64,000 bases of DNA. Origin: Escherichia phage vB_ESM-pEJ01. The stretch lies in the sequence record OP114734.1. One strand, written 5' to 3'. Below are positions 39,976-62,239 of the stretch, one piece after another. The notes under the pieces are model-generated. The model was not told where the DNA came from and did not search any database. It was given only the letters and a program-made list of their open reading frames with translations. Made by a program: the position numbers and the translations under genes. Position 1 is the first letter of the stretch, and every line of letters starts with the position of its first letter.

Positions 39976-40539
39976 TCAACTAAAATTTAAAGATGCAAAC
40001 TCCCCGTGATGAATTTTTGCATATTCATCATATGCTCTAGCGGCTTCCTCCTGAGTAGCAAACGATCCTATGTATTTTCTGTATCCGTTTATCCTTATTT
40101 GTGCTTGCCACGGTCTTTTGCTAGATCCTTTGCGATGAGTAACACCATTATATATGCTCGTGCACCCGTCCATTTTCTTTTTATTGTACATGTTTTGTTG
40201 TTGTGTTGCCTCCCGTAAATTTGGTGGATTGTTGTTTTCTGGATTCCCGTCTATGTGGTCTATTACCTTAACCTGTGTTCCATATTCAAGAAACCAGACA
40301 ATTCTATGTACAAGATATGTAGATGTTCTCTTTTTAACCTTATTGTAAACATCTATTGCCAAATGACCGTAATTTAACTTTTTTGTTTTTACTTTATCAC
40401 CGACTCGGTAGAAATATCCCTCTGGTAGACCATTAAAAGACGGACTATTTGTTTTGTGATATAGAACACCTTCCGTGTGTTCAAATCTGCGTTTTAATTC
40501 CTCTTGAATTTCAGTATTCCAAAATTTCGCACTTTTCAT
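39976..40539 (-). mobile_element. freestanding HNH-AP2 homing endonuclease
   Basis: 187 aa; IVWFLEYGTQVKVIDHIDGNPENNNPPNLREATQQQN plus AP2-like YNGVTHR...WQAQIRINGY; ATG 1 nt after the gene 39 stop. Confidence 0.8.
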
Positions 40540-40540
40540 A

Positions 40541-42364
40541 TTATGACGCCATCCATGCCTTCCTCATGTCTGAATCTTCGCTATAGAGCAAATCGAATAG
40601 CTCTTTATAGTTTTCCGGTAACGTGATGATCTCCATGACAGGATCGTTGATCACGCGATGATAGTCTGATTCTGTGAGCGATGCTAAACCTTTGATATAT
40701 CGAATGTTGTAACCTTTGATATTATCTCGGTCGTTCTCGAAATCTTCTAGGTCATAATACCATCGAACATCATCACCTTTCTTTGGTTCAGCAATGATAA
40801 TAGGTGTTTTGATAAACCGGATTCGTCCATCTTCGAACAATTCAGGCCAACGTGCAAAGAAAGAGATCAGACTAGGTTTAATAGACCCGATCCCGTCGGT
40901 ATCAGCGTCTGTCATAATCGCAATATTTTTGTATTGCATAACTTCCAATGCATCAACACCAAATTGCAAGCCAGTGATCGCCATGATGTTAAAAATTTCG
41001 GCGTTATTAACGATCTTTGCCTCCGGTTGTTCCCACGTTGTAAGAGTTTTGCCTCGCAACGGGAAACCTCCATGTAAATCTTGATCGCGTACAGAGATCA
41101 GATAGTTGATCGCGGAATCACCTTCCGTCAAAAACAGGGTAGTTTCTGCGTCAGTTCCAATAAGGTTAGCTTTAACGTGTTTTGCCACCTTAGCCCGTTT
41201 CGCTGCCTTTGCTGCCTTAGTCGCTGCCGCTTTATCTGCTGCCTCTTTGCGTGCCAAGACTACAGCAATAATAGGCATGATAATGTTTTCTTTCTTCGCA
41301 ATGACTTTAGCCAGCTTTTTAAAATCAAGATCAATATGACGCTTGATATCACCAGTCGGGTTAGTCAAGCGTTCTTTTGTCTGTGAATCAAAACGAAGGT
41401 TAGGCAATTCACGAACAATAAGAATACAGGTCAATCCAGATTTAACCGCAGCTTTAGTAACATCAACCTTATATTCTTTCTTGATTCGTTTTACAATCTC
41501 TTCACAAAGATCATCTGTCACATAATCAACGTGTGTTCCCCCGTTTTTGGTAAACAGACCGTTAGCAAAGGATACTGATTTAAAACCTTCTCCCTCGACC
41601 GCCGGAACTAGGGCAAGTGAAAAGTTTTTATCTTCAATGACAAACGGATCATCATTGTATAGTTTAGCATAATCCTTGAACTTACTAACAATACGTTTAC
41701 CATTAAACTTAAACGTGATCTTAGGAAATATTACGCTCAATGATTGCAGACGATCATGAACAATATCTAAAACAGAGTTGTCCATCATATAACCTTCGAA
41801 GTGGTCGAAGTCTGGACAAAATGTAACCTTCGTTCCCTTCAATTTTGATGGTTTTGATGACCATGTGACATTTTCAGCACCGTTTGTGCATTGAACGGTC
41901 ATTTCTGTTTCGCCGTCACAGGTCACACCAGTAAACCAATCGCTAAAGAAATTTGATAACGACGACCCAACACCGTTCATCCCTTGCGTTAATCGATTGG
42001 TATCATCAAAGTTAGACCCTGCTTTTGTTCGTGTCCATGCGGCTACAGGTTGCGGAATCTGCGTACCCTCTGGGGTAGTAACCATATGTTGAGGAATACC
42101 GCGACCATTGTCTGTTACCGTAACAATATTGTTTTGGATATCGACGCTAATCACATTGGCAAATTCAAAGTTAGTGCGGATCGCCTCGTCTACAGAGTTG
42201 TCGATGATCTCATCAATGATTTTAACCAGTCCAGGAACGTATGAAATTTTTGTCCATTTACCGAACAGGAAACGTTGATGTTCTTCGTAAGTTGTTGATC
42301 CTATATACATTCCTGCACGCTTAAGGACATGTTCACGATCAGATAAAATGCGAAACTCACTCAT
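40541..42364 (-). CDS. 39: DNA topoisomerase II large (ATPase) subunit gp39, unsplit
   Basis: 607 aa; GyrB-like GHKL ATPase and TOPRIM motifs; one continuous ORF covering the region that T4 splits into genes 39 and 60. Confidence 0.88.
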   Translation of the reverse strand: MSEFRILSDREHVLKRAGMYIGSTTYEEHQRFLFGKWTKISYVPGLVKIIDEIIDNSVDEAIRTNFEFANVISVDIQNNIVTVTDNGRGIPQHMVTTPEGTQIPQPVAAWTRTKAGSNFDDTNRLTQGMNGVGSSLSNFFSDWFTGVTCDGETEMTVQCTNGAENVTWSSKPSKLKGTKVTFCPDFDHFEGYMMDNSVLDIVHDRLQSLSVIFPKITFKFNGKRIVSKFKDYAKLYNDDPFVIEDKNFSLALVPAVEGEGFKSVSFANGLFTKNGGTHVDYVTDDLCEEIVKRIKKEYKVDVTKAAVKSGLTCILIVRELPNLRFDSQTKERLTNPTGDIKRHIDLDFKKLAKVIAKKENIIMPIIAVVLARKEAADKAAATKAAKAAKRAKVAKHVKANLIGTDAETTLFLTEGDSAINYLISVRDQDLHGGFPLRGKTLTTWEQPEAKIVNNAEIFNIMAITGLQFGVDALEVMQYKNIAIMTDADTDGIGSIKPSLISFFARWPELFEDGRIRFIKTPIIIAEPKKGDDVRWYYDLEDFENDRDNIKGYNIRYIKGLASLTESDYHRVINDPVMEIITLPENYKELFDLLYSEDSDMRKAWMAS

Positions 42365-42467
42365 TATTAAACCTCTTCATAACATAACCATAACTTACTG
42401 CAACCGCCACAAAGACGGCTGCAACAATCATATTAAAAATTGAGTGATTGTCAAGTATATGACTCAT
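42357..42467 (-). CDS. possible hydrophobic micro-protein (36 aa), not in ORF track
   Basis: ATG overlaps stop of the Zn-ribbon gene (ATGA); MSHILDNHSIFNMIVAAVFVAVAVSYGYVMKRFNNE; stop overlaps gene 39 start. Confidence 0.3.
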   Translation of the reverse strand: MSHILDNHSIFNMIVAAVFVAVAVSYGYVMKRFNNE

Positions 42468-42637
42468 GACACGCGCACATTTTTATCATAGTACCCGCCA
42501 TTAATCCCGCGCGGGGCAGTTAATCCCTGTTTGCATTCTTTACCACATTCAGGGCATTCTGCCTTTTCACGCTCGGAAATTTTGCGGATTTTCTGAAATT
42601 GACCGTGTTCTTCACAAGAATAATCATATAATGGCAT
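42464..42637 (-). CDS. FmdB-like zinc-ribbon protein
   Basis: 57 aa from MPLYDYSCEEHG...ECPECG (CxxH...CxxC); start re-set to avoid overlap with dexA. Confidence 0.5.
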   Translation of the reverse strand: MPLYDYSCEEHGQFQKIRKISEREKAECPECGKECKQGLTAPRGINGGYYDKNVRVS

Positions 42638-42638
42638 A

Positions 42639-43307
42639 TTATCCCCTTTGTTTCTTAACTGAATTTGGATCTGGATTTTCTGGTAGGTCTTCCAGACCCA
42701 TAGCATAACGTTGTGCATAGATTAGCATAAGAATATCGCGAGCGCAATCATGAATTGCATCATGTGCGATAAAACCATCTAGCGTACCCATTGGTAACGG
42801 GCATTCACACATACCACGATGCATCAATGTACGCTCAATGGCGGTGCGAACATCTCGGATGTTCCAGAATCGCACAGGTTCAAGATTGAACGTCTCACGG
42901 GTATTGTGTGCACGGCGGATCATATCAACCAGTAACGGAATATCAAACGCATTACCGCGTGACCACATTACGGATTTAACCGGATCTACTCCTACAGATT
43001 CACAGAATGCGTTAAAACGCGCTAAACCTTCTTTAGTTGATACTTCCGTACCATTTGTGATTAATTGCTTTCTCATGCCTTCTGAGGCGGTATTCTTCCA
43101 CCATTCAACCACACCATGATCAAACACCCTTACACCTTTCTGGGAAGGAATATCAAATTTTACCAGAAAGGAATTGTCAACCAGTTCTTTAAATGTAGGT
43201 GGGTTGTGCGGATCTTCTTTAAATCCGATTGCCGCCATATTGATCACCGCCCCATCAGGCGGATAACCTAAACTTTCAAAGTCAATCATTAAATCCACTG
43301 GAAGCAT
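42639..43307 (-). CDS. dexA: exonuclease A (DnaQ-like 3'-5' exonuclease)
   Basis: 222 aa; colinear with remembered T4 DexA (LEPVRFWNIRDVRT, GTLDGFIAHDAIHDCARDILM, YAMGLED). Confidence 0.88.
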   Translation of the reverse strand: MLPVDLMIDFESLGYPPDGAVINMAAIGFKEDPHNPPTFKELVDNSFLVKFDIPSQKGVRVFDHGVVEWWKNTASEGMRKQLITNGTEVSTKEGLARFNAFCESVGVDPVKSVMWSRGNAFDIPLLVDMIRRAHNTRETFNLEPVRFWNIRDVRTAIERTLMHRGMCECPLPMGTLDGFIAHDAIHDCARDILMLIYAQRYAMGLEDLPENPDPNSVKKQRG

Positions 43308-52757: not shown

Positions 52758-53828
52758 TTATGCTAACATATCTTCGATTTCTTTGTCAACTGCTTCGTCG
52801 CTGATAATCTGGCCTAACTGATAATGATCGTTGATTGCTTTCTGGAAGTGCTCATTGGTCAGTAGAGGTTTCCAGAACTCCACACTGTCAGTGTCTTTTG
52901 CACGCACCTTGCGGTCTTCAACTTCCATTTCTCCGGTCTCCTCGTTAAGAATAGCGCGAGAATACCAGCCATTTGATGGTTTAACTACCCAACCCAACTC
53001 CACCGCAAGATCCAGCAATCCAGAATAAGGATCGATGCCACCACTAAACGTTACGCTAATCGGGAACTTTGATCCCTCTCTAACCGTTCGTGATTTCTCG
53101 GCTTTCAGAATAAAGTCATAACCCGTAACCTCGGTTCCTTCTTTCTGCTGGCGACGCCCAATGATGAAAATTTCATTGGAAGAGTAAACGCCACCAGTAC
53201 CGCCACCCATGATATCTTTCGGGTAAAGATCCATTGAGCTATAAACGTGGTTAATCGCAATGCACGGAATATCATTCATGGTCAGATACGGCGTAATCAT
53301 ACGGAACAAGCCTTTAAGTGCTTTAGCTCTCGTCATATCCTGTGCCGATTTCTCATTAATCGCGTCTTCAACTTCTTTTTTACTTGCCAAGTTACCGATT
53401 GAGTCAATAAAGATGATCACTTTATCTTCACGGGTAATTTGCTCAAGCTGGTTCATGATCTCAAATTTAAGTTCTTCGATGTTCTTGATTGGAACGTGCA
53501 CCACTCGATCAGGATCTACACCCATAGATGACAGATACGCGGAAGTAATGCCAAATTCTGAATCAAAGAACAAACAAGCCGCATCTGGATTCTGTTTCAT
53601 GTATGCACTAACACAAGTTAATCCCATGTTTGATTTAAAGTGCTTAGACGGACCAGCAAAGAAAATCAGACCAGATTGAAAGCCTTTTTTAAGATCACCA
53701 GAAAACGCAATATTCAGCATCGGGATCTTAGTGCGAGTATTTGTTTTTTCGTTAAAGAAGCTGGATTTAGACAGTACCGCAGTAGTTTTCAGGGTAGAGT
53801 TCTTTTTCAGTTTTTCCAGTACAGACAT
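52758..53828 (-). CDS. uvsX: UvsX recombinase (RecA-like)
   Basis: 356 aa; colinear with remembered T4 UvsX (GPSKHFKSNMGLT, FFDSEFGIT, IDSIGNLASKKE, CIAINH). Confidence 0.9.
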   Translation of the reverse strand: MSVLEKLKKNSTLKTTAVLSKSSFFNEKTNTRTKIPMLNIAFSGDLKKGFQSGLIFFAGPSKHFKSNMGLTCVSAYMKQNPDAACLFFDSEFGITSAYLSSMGVDPDRVVHVPIKNIEELKFEIMNQLEQITREDKVIIFIDSIGNLASKKEVEDAINEKSAQDMTRAKALKGLFRMITPYLTMNDIPCIAINHVYSSMDLYPKDIMGGGTGGVYSSNEIFIIGRRQQKEGTEVTGYDFILKAEKSRTVREGSKFPISVTFSGGIDPYSGLLDLAVELGWVVKPSNGWYSRAILNEETGEMEVEDRKVRAKDTDSVEFWKPLLTNEHFQKAINDHYQLGQIISDEAVDKEIEDMLA

Positions 53829-53839
53829 TATTAATACCT

Positions 53840-54067
53840 CTATTCAGTTAATCCGTAATACTTTAATTGCTTCATTGTTATTCGATCTTTGTAGTGCTCT
53901 TGAATTAACTTTTTCATCACATCAACATCGATCGTCACAAATACTTCGTTGCTGTGATTTCCGTGAACTTTCTTGAAATGCTCTATGCCTTCCTCACGTT
54001 CACGTTTAATCTTTTCAATGTCTCTCATAATATATTTCTCACATTGGCGGGTATCGTAACCCAACAC
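53840..54067 (-). CDS. hypothetical small protein
   Basis: 75 aa; the only ORF between gene 43 and uvsX. Confidence 0.4.
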   Translation of the reverse strand: MLGYDTRQCEKYIMRDIEKIKREREEGIEHFKKVHGNHSNEVFVTIDVDVMKKLIQEHYKDRITMKQLKYYGLTE

Positions 54068-56800: not shown

Positions 56801-56829
56801 ATTATAGGGGAATCGACCTAGTTTGTCAA
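56801..56829 (-). promoter_or_regulatory. sigma70-like promoter (TTGACA-17-TATAAT) upstream of gene 43
   Basis: GGGG...CCCC inverted repeat flanks the -35. Confidence 0.5.
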
Positions 56830-57214: not shown

Positions 57215-57793
57215 TTACCACCTTTCTATAATCTTTTTAAGTCGTTTCCTTTCTGTCTGATTCTTAGTAACACCCGCCAAAAGTTCATCGGTCGCATACG
57301 GTTTAATGTGCTTCAATAACTTGTCCATATATCCCTTTTCATTAGCCAAATCGAGATAAAACCGGGCGTCATCCATATTTACACAATATGCTTTCGCCAC
57401 TGCCATTAAAACCAATTTTTGGTCCAATTCTTCTGTTAGTTTAGCCCATTTACCGTATCGTTTCCCCTTAGAAATACTCTGTAAGAGATAATCAAAATGC
57501 ATTTGATCTGGGAGGCCATGACCGATTAAATTCATCACATACGCGCTATATAGGCAATCTGCGTGCTGGGAAAGAGCGGTGTTAATCCATCTCTGGTTAT
57601 ATGCAGAATTGTTTCCCACATTAACGCGCTGTTTATCTAAGGTGATATGATCCATCAGAGCAAATAATGCATTGTCGGTTTTCTCGGTGAATGTATCCGC
57701 TAATTCAGACACCTTTTCCCAATCACGAGAACGCCATGCAATTTCATGCTCGTTTAATTGTGTATCATCTTCACCGAAAAATTGACCTAACAT
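57215..57793 (-). CDS. 62: clamp loader small subunit gp62
   Basis: 192 aa; colinear with remembered T4 gp62 (QLNEHEIAWRSRDW, YVMNLIGHGL, GKRYGKWAKL). Confidence 0.85.
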   Translation of the reverse strand: MLGQFFGEDDTQLNEHEIAWRSRDWEKVSELADTFTEKTDNALFALMDHITLDKQRVNVGNNSAYNQRWINTALSQHADCLYSAYVMNLIGHGLPDQMHFDYLLQSISKGKRYGKWAKLTEELDQKLVLMAVAKAYCVNMDDARFYLDLANEKGYMDKLLKHIKPYATDELLAGVTKNQTERKRLKKIIERW

Positions 57794-60339: not shown

Positions 60340-60570
60340 TCACGTTCTAAAGTTTGTTGCAACCCCAGCATCAGGGTAATCAAGTTTATCAAAGTTGGGG
60401 ACCAGCATAAACTCATGATGACGACAAGACAACATTTTTGTTATGTCTGCATCGCTGTATATGCTGTTTTTCATATCCCCCATACTAACTACATATTCTT
60501 CACCGGAATATAGATTGATTAAGGTATACAATTCTAACTCCGGCTGCGTTACTCTGTCAAATGTTAACAT
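60340..60570 (-). CDS. hypothetical small protein
   Basis: 76 aa track ORF immediately downstream of gene 46. Confidence 0.4.
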   Translation of the reverse strand: MLTFDRVTQPELELYTLINLYSGEEYVVSMGDMKNSIYSDADITKMLSCRHHEFMLVPNFDKLDYPDAGVATNFRT

Positions 60571-62239
60571 TCATTTCAGTGAATCGCCCACGTTTAACCA
60601 TCTTGAGATGACGGCTAAAATCATCAGGGTTATGGTCACGATGGCTGATAATATACACGTTATCATCTAACTTGTCAATGATGGAATCAAGTGCTTTTAC
60701 GCCTTGAACGTCCGTAGCCCCATCATAAATTTCGTCGAGTACCAACAAAGAAATATTAGTACCAGATACTTTACCAGCAACATCACGCCATGTAAAGAGC
60801 ATCGCAAGGTCAATACGTGCCTTTTCGCCTTGACTGAACGATGTATACGAAAACGATTCACGCCCCCGTGATTTGATTGTTTCGTTAAACTCTTCATCTA
60901 GCGTAAAGATATAATCCGCTTCCATGATATCAAGATAATACGCAATCCGATCATTGAAATATGGAATATATTTCTTGACGATAGACGCCTTAACACCGGA
61001 ATCCTTCAACATTTCTGTTACAAATCCACGGTGATATTTTTCAAGAACTAGCTTTGATTTTTCATTAGTAATCTCTACCAGTTCGTGTTCCAGTTTAGCA
61101 AGTTCTTCGGAATTGTCAACCCTTTCTTTTTGTAATTCCTGAATTGCTTTCTGGATCTGTTTAGCCCGACCTACAGATGCCGTTAAATTCGCTCTCTGTG
61201 ACTCTATAGCGCGTTTAATTTCCAAGACCTTAGTTTGTGCTGTCTGGAAAGAATTGGCTTTCTCTGCGTATTCTACGCGTTTCTCGTCAATCAGAGACAG
61301 TTTATGTTCCGCTTGTGCTTTTTGTTCGCGTACAGCCTGATCATTACCCTGAATGATCGGTTGTGTGCACGTAGGACAGATCCCGCCTTTCTCATGCATA
61401 TGAATAACACGGTCAAAGTTCTGGATCTGCGCACCAATCTGTGCGATAGCCGTATTAATTTTAGCCAATGCCGCGCTAGGATCTTCCGGCATAACAACAG
61501 CCAATAGCTCATCGGTCAAGCGCGTTTCTTCGGCTTTAAACGCTTTAGCTGATTCTACTTCTTTCTCGTACATATTCTGCAAACGCTGTAGATTCTCGGC
61601 ACTCGCCTTGCTAGCGTCTTCTATGTACTTTTTATGAGTGTTGATTTGTTGCTGAACGTGATTAGCTTTCATTTCCTGCATTTGGATATTCTGGGTAATC
61701 TCGCGCACATACGCTTTATTCAGTTTATCCATTTCGCCTAGCGTAGCAATATCAAGCAAATCCTCAACCAGTTTACGGCGACCCGCTGCCGGAAGACTCA
61801 TAAACGGAACATAACCAGCAGTACCTAAAACAACGATCTGTTTAAAGCTGGCTAGGTTCATGCCTATGATACCTTCAAAATATTCCTGAAAGTCTTTGGT
61901 GCTTGCGCTCTCGTCGATCTTTTGACCGTCGCGATGCACTTCGAATACTTCCGGTTTTTGACCACGTTTGATATAAAACTCTTTCCCGTCCAGTTCAAAC
62001 CAGACTTCGACTAACAGTTTCTTTTTGTTGACGCTGTTAATCAATTGGCCTTTCTTGATACTACGAAACGGTTTACCGAACAACACAAAGCAAAGCGCCT
62101 CGATCATTGTTGATTTACCAGCACCGTTAACACCAGTGATTAGTGTCTTTTTGAATCCGTCTAGCTGAATCTCAACAGGTTCAGCACCCACGCTCATTAT
62201 ATTTTGATAGCGCAAGGTTTTAAAATTTAACTTTGCCAT
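60557..62239 (-). CDS. 46: recombination endonuclease ATPase subunit gp46 (Rad50/SbcC-like)
   Basis: 560 aa from ATG at 62239 (the track ORF starts at an upstream TTG); Walker A GVNGAGKST, zinc hook CPTC, C-terminal EEFNETIKSRGRESFSYTSFSQGEKARIDLA and LVLDE match remembered T4 gp46. Confidence 0.9.
   Translation of the reverse strand: MAKLNFKTLRYQNIMSVGAEPVEIQLDGFKKTLITGVNGAGKSTMIEALCFVLFGKPFRSIKKGQLINSVNKKKLLVEVWFELDGKEFYIKRGQKPEVFEVHRDGQKIDESASTKDFQEYFEGIIGMNLASFKQIVVLGTAGYVPFMSLPAAGRRKLVEDLLDIATLGEMDKLNKAYVREITQNIQMQEMKANHVQQQINTHKKYIEDASKASAENLQRLQNMYEKEVESAKAFKAEETRLTDELLAVVMPEDPSAALAKINTAIAQIGAQIQNFDRVIHMHEKGGICPTCTQPIIQGNDQAVREQKAQAEHKLSLIDEKRVEYAEKANSFQTAQTKVLEIKRAIESQRANLTASVGRAKQIQKAIQELQKERVDNSEELAKLEHELVEITNEKSKLVLEKYHRGFVTEMLKDSGVKASIVKKYIPYFNDRIAYYLDIMEADYIFTLDEEFNETIKSRGRESFSYTSFSQGEKARIDLAMLFTWRDVAGKVSGTNISLLVLDEIYDGATDVQGVKALDSIIDKLDDNVYIISHRDHNPDDFSRHLKMVKRGRFTEMNVNI

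Follow-up and report, generated by a model that had tools for sequence, protein, structure and literature searches.

The interval between dexA and gene 39 of Escherichia phage vB_ESM-pEJ01 probably comprises one real small gene, 39.2, followed by a regulatory spacer that is incidentally open in one reading frame. The window analyzed was the whole 64,000-nt stretch (OP114734.1), which comes from a Krischvirus, an RB49-like T4-type phage. The locus itself is ordinary, and the annotations of RB49 and Phi1 already list both of its small ORFs, under the names gp39.2 and ORF006.1. The original prediction described a 57-aa FmdB-like zinc-ribbon ORF joined through ATGA to a 36-aa hydrophobic ORF, and proposed a small regulatory or membrane peptide translated together with the topoisomerase. 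The anatomy and the family call stood, and the functional reading was supported for neither part. The features of the locus are as follows.

42642 to 42648, minus strand: Shine-Dalgarno (SD) sequence AAGGGGA of gene 39.2, within the last dexA codons (-7.8 kcal/mol duplex, Phi1 copy)
42641 to 42639, minus strand: stop codon TAA of dexA, one base before the ATG of gene 39.2
42464 to 42637, minus strand: gene 39.2, a 57-aa FmdB-type zinc ribbon (ATG 42637 to 42635, stop TGA 42466 to 42464)
42357 to 42467, minus strand: micro-ORF of 36 codons, RB49 ORF006.1 or phrog_25974 (ATG 42467 to 42465, stop TGA 42359 to 42357)
42378 to 42467, minus strand: 90-nt invariant block of promoter, stem-loop and linker, whose 3′ end (...GTTATG) is the breakpoint
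42427 to 42454, minus strand: candidate early promoter of the sigma-70 type (-35 TTGACA at 42454 to 42449, 16-nt spacer, -10 TATGAT at 42432 to 42427)
42395 to 42427, minus strand: RNA stem-loop, a 14-bp stem including four G-U pairs, with loop UUUGU
42372 to 42377, minus strand: SD sequence AAGAGG of gene 39 (-6.5 kcal/mol), a ribosome binding site in the Makalu_002 annotation
40541 to 42364, minus strand: gene 39, DNA topoisomerase II large subunit, 607 aa (phrog_543, E = 3.5e-252; Pfam DNA_gyraseB, HATPase_c and Toprim)

Both small ORFs, their ATGA junction and the overlap with the gene 39 start were found as described, all on the minus strand, and the predicted span of 42357–42637 was exact: the zinc-ribbon ORF starts at 42637 and the stop codon of the micro-ORF ends at 42357. 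The micro-ORF encodes the peptide MSHILDNHSIFNMIVAAVFVAVAVSYGYVMKRFNNE, and its end overlaps the start of gene 39 by 8 nt (ATGAGTGA). Gene 39 is present in the unsplit 39+60 form.

The assignment of the 57-aa product (gp39.2) to an FmdB-like family was right. It scored above the curated cut-offs of both PF09723 (Zn_ribbon_8; 46.7 bits vs. a cut-off of 34.4, E = 3e-12) and TIGR02605 (CxxC_CxxC_SSSS; 54.0 bits vs. 31.3), and 884 phage records contain a relative, which together place the gene above chance. FmdB-type proteins carry two CxxC knuckles with ~15–20 residues between them. The candidate zinc ligands of gp39.2 are C8, H11, C28 and C31; the second knuckle is C28-P-E-C31, and the first is C8-E-E-H11, in which the histidine perhaps takes the place of the second cysteine. 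In gp39.2 of T2 and T4, C8 is followed by a second cysteine five residues further on. A sequence search of the PDB returned no close solved structure for gp39.2, and the best match (E = 0.012) was to an unrelated consensus zinc finger. The mechanical list of ORFs held an 84-aa version of the gene reaching 42718, and all annotated records start at the 57-aa ATG.

Sequence and gene order identify 39.2 as the counterpart, in Krischvirus, of T-even gp39.2, and as its ortholog. Its product shared 24 of 54 residues (44%) with the 58-aa gp39.2 of T2 (pairwise E = 3e-17), and tblastn found T4, T2, T6, JS98 and others at E ~1e-9. The gene lies in the early region upstream of gene 39 in RB49, T4, T2, Karamvirus CkP1 and Muldoonvirus WSPA, with different intervening genes each time. 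Conservation of both frames in relatives had been proposed as a check, and gene 39.2 passed it: the variable sites among 14 genomes comprised 18 synonymous and three non-synonymous ones, indicating purifying selection. The 39.2 copy of phage Brandy carries a frameshift in a homopolymer run. With gp39.2 as the query, IMG/VR yielded three Krischvirus contigs that were nearly identical and, beside PhoH or terminase genes, three zinc-ribbon contexts that were unrelated; none of these added information on the micro-ORF.

The product of T4 39.2 is NwgI, a modulator of GroEL, and T4 needs it to grow on certain hosts with groEL mutations, according to the account of Ang and Georgopoulos (2012) given in the Georgopoulos memoir (PMC5153855). 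Given the orthology, an NwgI-like action on GroEL would be expected of RB49-type gp39.2, which by this analogy would be a small modulator of host GroEL and not a partner of topoisomerase. Map position is the sole link of the zinc-ribbon gene to topoisomerase. The Krischvirus and T4 versions of gp39.2 are alike in length class (57 vs. 58 aa), in belonging to the FmdB-type zinc-ribbon family, in map position upstream of gene 39 and in the conserved motifs MP(L/M)YDY-C, KI-KISERE, CP-C and AP--NGG-YD, the identity to the T2 copy being 44%. RB49-type phages likewise need GroEL, via their own co-chaperonin CocO. However, the first zinc knuckle of the Krischvirus protein is C-x2-H and not a two-cysteine pair, dexA lies directly upstream of 39.2 where T4 and T2 have goF and cef, and no 39.1 separates 39.2 from 39. 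The gene should be named after its T4 ortholog, 39.2/NwgI (GroEL modulator), and not "FmdB-like transcriptional regulator."

The second part of the locus, from the stop of 39.2 to the ATG of gene 39, measures 99 nt, and the neighboring gaps that hold promoter-early stem-loop (PeSL) cassettes measure 50–90 nt. Ten nucleotides after the 39.2 stop lies the -35 hexamer of a candidate promoter, TTGACA-16-TATGAT, which matched the consensus at 11 of 12 positions and would place a transcription start near 42420 on the minus strand. Matches of at least 11/12 across the whole window numbered 32 on the minus strand and none on the plus strand (1.2 expected in shuffles), and the GEC-3S annotation labels as promoters the corresponding matches that precede srd and modB. 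At this spacer neither the 2006 RB49 predictions of promoters and terminators nor the GEC-3S annotation has an entry for either element. The 14-bp stem begins on the final base of the -10 hexamer, with the arms UUGUUGCAGCCGUC and GGCGGUUGCAGUAA. Its folding energy was -18.3 kcal/mol (z = -5.1), and none of 200 shuffles was equally stable. The stem-loop has no proper U-tract. A search of 42250–42750 against Rfam, with E up to 1, found no family.

The micro-ORF sits exactly on this promoter and stem-loop spacer, and for that reason it probably does not encode a functional peptide of its own; its status as a gene is doubtful. The hairpin arms encode VAAVFVAVAV, the core of the putative transmembrane segment, and the SD sequence AAGAGG of gene 39 is read as the codons of K31 and R32. 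A single-pass transmembrane helix was predicted over the same stretch that the arms encode, with a Kyte-Doolittle maximum of 1.99 (19-residue window) and basic residues after the helix. For the micro-ORF the anti-SD duplex energy was +0.3 kcal/mol; the 42 other local genes ranged from -2.8 to -10.0 kcal/mol, which makes it the sole SD-less start among 43 and leaves the ATGA overlap as its one potential initiation signal. Relatives of the peptide were found in 58 Krischvirus records only, and none outside the genus. An exhaustive comparison with 1.84 billion cluster representatives found nothing but its own cluster, and profiles of Pfam and NCBIfam gave no match. Krischvirus transcriptome, Ribo-seq or proteome data were sought in the literature and none were found. 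The original prediction of a regulatory or membrane peptide was not supported, as each segment of the micro-ORF falls on a regulatory signal in the DNA (-35, -10, stem-loop, then the SD sequence and start of gene 39), its start lacks an SD sequence, it is limited to one genus and its C-terminus is replaceable.

The open frame did not clearly exceed chance. A frame of 32 open codons arose in 8% of shuffles with the base composition of the spacer, the overlap of ATG on TGA requires merely an A before the stop, and the neighboring 27 kb has 12 intergenic gaps of 45 nt or more, four of which were open in one frame or several. Among 14 sequences, the micro-ORF had no synonymous change and one non-synonymous change, where ~9 synonymous ones were expected from its neighbors. 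Over its first 90 nt, 56 of the 58 genomes carry the same DNA, which makes the proposed check of frame conservation uninformative for the micro-ORF and leaves no synonymous variation by which to show selection at the level of protein. A frameshift of the micro-ORF in LF73P4 also falls in a homopolymer run; this and the one in Brandy were taken as probable sequencing errors and not as evidence. Kinship with other genes after 39.2 was considered and rejected. The micro-ORF is not a leftover of T-even 39.1: T2 gp39.1 is an 86-aa lipoprotein-like product with no similarity to it, and T4 gp39.1 is also unrelated. In Karamvirus and Muldoonvirus, 39.2 is followed by genes for soluble proteins that are likewise unrelated.

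All 90 nt of the block were the same in 56 of 58 records; for the adjacent 90 nt of 39.2 this was so in 15 of 58. The invariant stretch is limited by 42472 and 42354, which nearly match the stop of 39.2 and the start of gene 39. At 42378, three alternative genes are joined to the block across genomes: gene 39, an HNH-AP2 endonuclease gene and a gene of the Endonuclease VII type. Endonuclease genes of these two unrelated homing types occupy the junction in ~15 Krischvirus genomes. In all four junction types the ATG of the micro-ORF lies in the ATGA overlap and the frame remains open as far as an overlap with the following start. The micro-ORF terminates at the first stop that the respective initiation region offers and is 35, 36, 36 or 43 aa long; the length of 43 aa, in JK32, results from a 1-nt change. 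The first 300 nt at the 5′ end of gene 39 exist as two haplotypes, 82–84% identical, which track the presence of the endonuclease. In the window, the junction at 42378 is uninterrupted, and an HNH-AP2 gene lies immediately downstream of gene 39 (39976–40539). Gene 62 contains an invariant run of 206 nt, and 49 of 58 genomes shared a 90-nt sample of it unchanged. That the block is frozen was rejected as a proof of function, because some other promoter cassettes vary and others are invariant, and because of this stretch of gene 62.

Here, the following scheme was favored for the locus. Gene 39.2 would be translated from its own SD sequence straight after dexA. Host sigma-70 RNA polymerase would begin an early transcript at the start near 42420, and this transcript would carry gene 39. 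On transcripts that read through from dexA and 39.2, the full hairpin might serve as an attenuator or as a stabilizer of the RNA end, by analogy with tested PeSLs. ORF006.1 would then most likely be a by-product of the cassette, in which the promoter yields the polar N-terminus, the hairpin arms yield the Ala/Val-rich "transmembrane" core and the purine-rich SD sequence yields the basic tail. Ribosomes that finish 39.2 at ATGA may sometimes reinitiate and read on, and no function of the peptide would have to be assumed. Several observations run counter to the by-product reading: the ATGA start and the overlap in all four junctions resemble translational coupling; the topology is credibly single-pass, and two expert annotations retain ORF006.1 as a CDS; promoters inside real genes are common in this phage; the 2006 RB49 predictions and the GEC-3S annotation have no promoter or terminator here; the stem-loop is not of the polyG-loop-polyC type and has no proper U-tract; and the total invariance of the block is greater than the constraint expected of a promoter and a hairpin, other PeSLs being variable.

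The first of the other explanations, a tentative one that we hold to be clearly less probable than not, is that ORF006.1 is a genuine single-pass membrane micro-protein, translated via termination-reinitiation at ATGA and passing ribosomes to gene 39, with the promoter and the hairpin embedded in it. The ATGA start together with the 8-nt stop/start overlap and the hydrophobic 21-residue core followed by K/R fit such a protein, as does the preservation of residues 1–30 in 58 of 58 genomes, carriers of insertions included. ORF006.1, which the RB49 annotation gained in 2010, is an annotated CDS with its own PHROG, and RB49 has many small transmembrane ORFs (Additional file 2). Five of the 14 promoters checked lay wholly within real genes; in-gene promoters are thus common in this phage, and a promoter within the micro-ORF is compatible with coding. 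A double constraint, on protein and on regulatory signals, would help to account for the frozen DNA. However, the unique SD-less start, the restriction to one genus, the unconserved C-terminal tail (43 aa in JK32 by one nucleotide) and the exact coincidence of the hydrophobic core with the hairpin arms all argue against this protein. So do the lack of synonymous variation, with a sole substitution that is non-synonymous, and a chance expectation of such an ORF that is not small.

A further explanation, which we consider quite unlikely, is that translation itself matters: ribosomes reinitiating at ATGA would melt the 14-bp hairpin, relieve attenuation and reach the start of gene 39 or of the endonuclease gene. 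Each junction variant keeps the frame open through the hairpin and closes it at the next start or past it, with a tail that is free to change; the strong hairpin lies entirely inside the ORF, and transcription termination has been demonstrated for PeSL stem-loops. However, the absent SD sequence implies inefficient reinitiation, the hairpin has no U-tract, and gene 39 has a good SD sequence and probably a promoter of its own, which makes coupling unnecessary; the invariance of the block leaves no comparative signal. That ORF006.1 is translated by SD-independent reinitiation at ATGA, either as a hairpin-melting conduit of ribosomes for gene 39 or the endonuclease gene or as a 30-residue membrane anchor peptide, was judged unlikely. 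It is highly improbable that the 90–120 nt of invariance are only history, with repeated homing of endonuclease genes at 42378 and co-conversion of the flanks homogenizing the genus while the promoter and hairpin add little constraint: the two unrelated endonuclease genes at exactly this junction in ~15 genomes, the gene 39 haplotypes tied to them and the long invariant runs within ordinary genes such as gene 62 agree with it, but nothing would make co-conversion tracts halt at the stop codon of 39.2 and the start of gene 39, the sequence of 39.2 immediately upstream is freely variable in carriers of the endonuclease too, and such a history accounts for the conservation only and not for what the sequence does.

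The case of ORF006.1 suggests that promoter-plus-hairpin cassettes in T4-type phages can pass for hydrophobic micro-proteins. A T-rich promoter would give a polar head, GC-rich hairpin arms an Ala/Val helix and a purine-rich SD sequence a basic tail. This caution bears on large-scale catalogs of small phage proteins; beyond annotation hygiene, the importance of the locus is small. If the translated reading were true, the same 90 nt would be used three times, as promoter, as RNA hairpin and as coding sequence, and this would explain the genus-wide freeze.

Three known systems resemble parts of this spacer. Free-standing homing-endonuclease genes, such as mob and seg of T4, are inserted between genes in T4-type phages. 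Similarly, in some Krischvirus genomes the inserted gene takes over the promoter and the neighboring target gene is strongly diverged; the insertion is, however, seen in relatives and not in the junction of this window. Bacterial operons have translationally coupled membrane ORFs of small size and leader peptides, which resemble the micro-ORF in starting at ATGA, in ending on the following start, in having a hydrophobic core and in enclosing a hairpin. In contrast to them, the micro-ORF has no SD sequence, no regulatory codons and no conservation past one genus.

The third system is the PeSL, a regulatory cassette described in RB49, Phi1 and JSE (Arbiol et al., 2010, PMC2839356; Comeau et al., 2014, PMC4122927), of which Arbiol et al. 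reported 51 in RB49. Five subclasses have been described, one of them with the stem-loop downstream of the -10 hexamer. Several features set the present spacer apart from these cassettes: the stem is not of the polyG-loop-polyC type of RB49 and Phi1, the promoter spacer is 16 and not 17 nt with scant AT-rich sequence upstream, the genome holds one copy of the block and nothing else that resembles it, and the spacer is annotated as a CDS and not as intergenic. In other features the two agree. The order is the same, from an upstream stop codon through a near-consensus sigma-70 promoter, a stem-loop with G-T pairs and an SD sequence to a downstream start, and the position of the stem-loop downstream of -10 is that of the described subclass. 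The spacer lies at a breakpoint where genes are swapped, and it occupies the interval between the upstream stop and the downstream SD sequence and start, provided that ORF006.1 is left out of the gene count. Likened in this way to the published description of the layout, the spacer between 39.2 and 39 appears to be a PeSL-like cassette.

The minus strand carries every gene of this region of the window. Between dexA and gene 39 the following features were recorded.

Features of the dexA–gene 39 interval
42641..42639, minus: dexA stop codon TAA, read from the sequence
42637, minus: ATG of gene 39.2, 1 base past the dexA stop, with the Shine-Dalgarno sequence (SD) AAGGGGA ahead
42467, minus: ATG of the micro-ORF (ORF006.1), overlapping the 39.2 stop (ATGA)
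42466..42464, minus: 39.2 stop codon TGA, within ATGA, read from the sequence
42454..42449, minus: putative -35 element TTGACA, a sigma-70 consensus match
42432..42427, minus: putative -10 element TATGAT, 16 nt past TTGACA; 11/12 overall to the sigma-70 consensus
42427..42395, minus: 14-bp stem-loop, -18.3 kcal/mol, z = -5.1
42377..42372, minus: gene 39 SD AAGAGG, read from the sequence
42364, minus: ATG of gene 39 (607-aa topoisomerase II large subunit)
42359..42357, minus: micro-ORF stop codon TGA, 8 bases past the gene 39 ATG

The products comprise 57 aa for 39.2 (MPLYDYSCEEHGQFQKIRKISEREKAECPECGKECKQGLTAPRGINGGYYDKNVRVS) and 36 aa for the micro-ORF (MSHILDNHSIFNMIVAAVFVAVAVSYGYVMKRFNNE). 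The original prediction described both exactly, coordinates included, and left only the strand unstated. The stretch was 99.8% identical to coliphage RB49, and 58 Krischvirus records matched it at ≥96.9%. The RB49 and Phi1 records already annotate both ORFs, one as gp39.2, which RefSeq relabels "FmdB-like transcriptional regulator", the other as ORF006.1, listed as a "hypothetical protein". The latter entered the RB49 annotation in 2010, after comparison with Phi1, and forms a PHROG of its own with unknown function. The literature and databases already cover these two ORFs as well as the type of cassette.

The 99-nt spacer that separates the 39.2 stop from the start codon of gene 39 holds successively the promoter match, the stem-loop, an 18-nt linker and the SD, and quite likely includes a functional early promoter of gene 39. 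In the whole window, sequences agreeing with TTGACA-N16-18-TATAAT at 11 or more of the 12 positions numbered 32 on the minus (transcribed) strand and 0 on the plus strand, with 1.2 expected by chance; this class is therefore overwhelmingly real. Minus-strand examples lie at 56829, 54100, 39979, 37040, 17588 and 12992. Many of the 32 are overlapped or trailed by GC-rich hairpins, the promoter-early stem-loop (PeSL) pattern, and several fall wholly within long genes; elsewhere in the phage, 5/14 promoters lie wholly inside real genes. The GEC-3S annotation marks equivalent sites ahead of srd and modB as promoters; the 39.2–39 site is in neither that annotation nor the 2006 RB49 promoter and terminator predictions.

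The identical 90-nt block, ending ...GTTATG (42378, minus), precedes a homing-endonuclease gene instead of gene 39 in ~15 Krischvirus genomes. JK32, MIZ2 and JEP8 have an Endonuclease VII-type gene at this place and phiS has one of the HNH-AP2 type, each with its own SD. There the micro-ORF extends to the first stop of the new sequence (36, 43 or 35 aa), and a one-base A-run difference alters its tail in JK32. Since the same block is joined to different genes, it behaves like a portable promoter cassette with the ORF tail as passenger. The junction at 42378 (minus), which immediately precedes the gene 39 SD, is a hotspot for insertions and is filled in these genomes by a 242-aa Endonuclease VII-type or a 179-aa HNH-AP2 gene (1501-2341, 1554-2221 and 1554-2450 in the compared phage records L004, L020 and L022). 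The first ~300 nt of gene 39 showed 82-84% identity to the window in endonuclease-bearing genomes (~91% in phiS), and G37-3 shares the diverged start of gene 39 but lacks an endonuclease. Directly after the gene 39 stop (40541) lies a 187-aa HNH_3 + AP2 homing-endonuclease-like ORF (39976..40539, minus); an ORF is present at this position in JSE but not in RB49 or Phi1, so the window is a mosaic relative to RB49.

Read in the micro-ORF frame, MSHILDNHSIFNMI comes from the promoter, VAAVFVAVAV from the arms and loop of the hairpin, SYGYVM from the linker, and KRFNNE from the SD and spacer. The putative transmembrane helix (Kyte-Doolittle maximum 1.99) is therefore a translated GC-rich inverted repeat. 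The first 90 nt were identical in 56/58 genomes; JEP8 differed by one non-synonymous substitution and LF73P4 by the loss of 1 nt from a homopolymer. Frame conservation, the check suggested in the original prediction, is therefore uninformative here; the adjoining 90 nt of 39.2 were identical in only 15/58. The LF73P4 deletion (window-equivalent ~42436) frameshifts the micro-ORF and also alters the promoter spacer. Synonymous changes numbered 0 against ~9 expected, unlike ordinary gene evolution. Composition-matched shuffles gave an open frame this long in 8% of cases, 4/12 nearby gaps of comparable size were open in some frame, and an ATG overlapping TGA needs only an A ahead of the stop.

We lean towards ORF006.1 having no function as a peptide. 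The original prediction of a small regulatory or membrane peptide co-translated with topoisomerase was not supported, and a real membrane micro-protein is unlikely: the hydrophobic helix that speaks for it is hairpin translation, the ORF lacks an SD, and tblastn found no relatives outside the 58 Krischvirus records. Its anti-SD energy was +0.3 kcal/mol vs. -2.8 to -10.0 for other genes, and of the 43 genes annotated over Phi1's first 27.5 kb, it alone had no anti-SD complementarity. Exhaustive phmmer against 1.84 billion cluster representatives matched only its own cluster. T-even gp39.1, considered as a counterpart, was unrelated. That the act of translation alone matters is more doubtful still. 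SD-less coupling through ATGA may occur. A literature search found no expression data for the genus Krischvirus.

The block's total invariance goes beyond what promoter and hairpin should require, because other cassettes vary; several superimposed constraints may account for it, or endonuclease homing that homogenised the stretch. Ordinary genes too contain long invariant runs, of 177-206 nt in seven Krischvirus genomes (57279..57484, 60524..60703, with two near-consensus promoters, and 53701..53877; mean variable-site rate in such genes 9.6%), which points to mosaic history or local constraint.

The original interpretation held in part: for 39.2, the FmdB-like family call was right, with the curated thresholds of PF09723 and TIGR02605 exceeded; the functional reading attached to the pair was not supported. 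Its frame conservation was evident among 14 Krischvirus sequences, where 18 synonymous vs. 3 non-synonymous variable sites identify a real gene. Relatives occurred in 884 phage records (tblastn), and pairwise alignment with the 58-aa T2 gp39.2 gave 44% identity over 54 residues (E=3e-17). The gene also lies upstream of gene 39 in T4, T2, one Karamvirus and one Muldoonvirus, with differing genes in between; no link between the protein and topoisomerase was found. The T4 reference NC_000866 (2590-2850 in the compared record L003) gives 39.2 as 45 aa, against 58 aa in T2 and the T4 literature. The T2 gp39.1 (86 aa) begins with a lipoprotein-like signal peptide, MKYINRSIAALVLAVSLVGC, whose coding counterpart in the T4 reference lies in an unannotated gap, 39.1 being called from an internal Met; mistakes in the annotation or sequence of the T4 record probably account for these discrepancies. 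In Brandy, a 1-base homopolymer-run deletion (window-equivalent ~42515) frameshifts 39.2; this and the LF73P4 frameshift are probably assembly errors.

The T4 protein (58 aa) is reported to push GroEL towards its open, co-chaperonin-binding state and to be required in certain groEL mutant hosts (Ang and Georgopoulos, 2012, cited in PMC5153855). The window's 39.2 is very probably the ortholog of this protein, NwgI, and by orthology would have the same GroEL role; it differs in its first zinc knuckle, which is C-x2-H. PeSLs of RB49 and Phi1 are described as running from upstream stop codon through promoter, stem-loop and SD to start, with the stem-loop in one of five positions, one directly downstream of the -10, and with promoter and terminator activity demonstrated for representative cassettes (Arbiol et al., 2010, PMC2839356; Comeau et al., 2014, PMC4122927). 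The 39.2–39 spacer has the same layout of parts; however, its stem is not of the G-run/C-run type.
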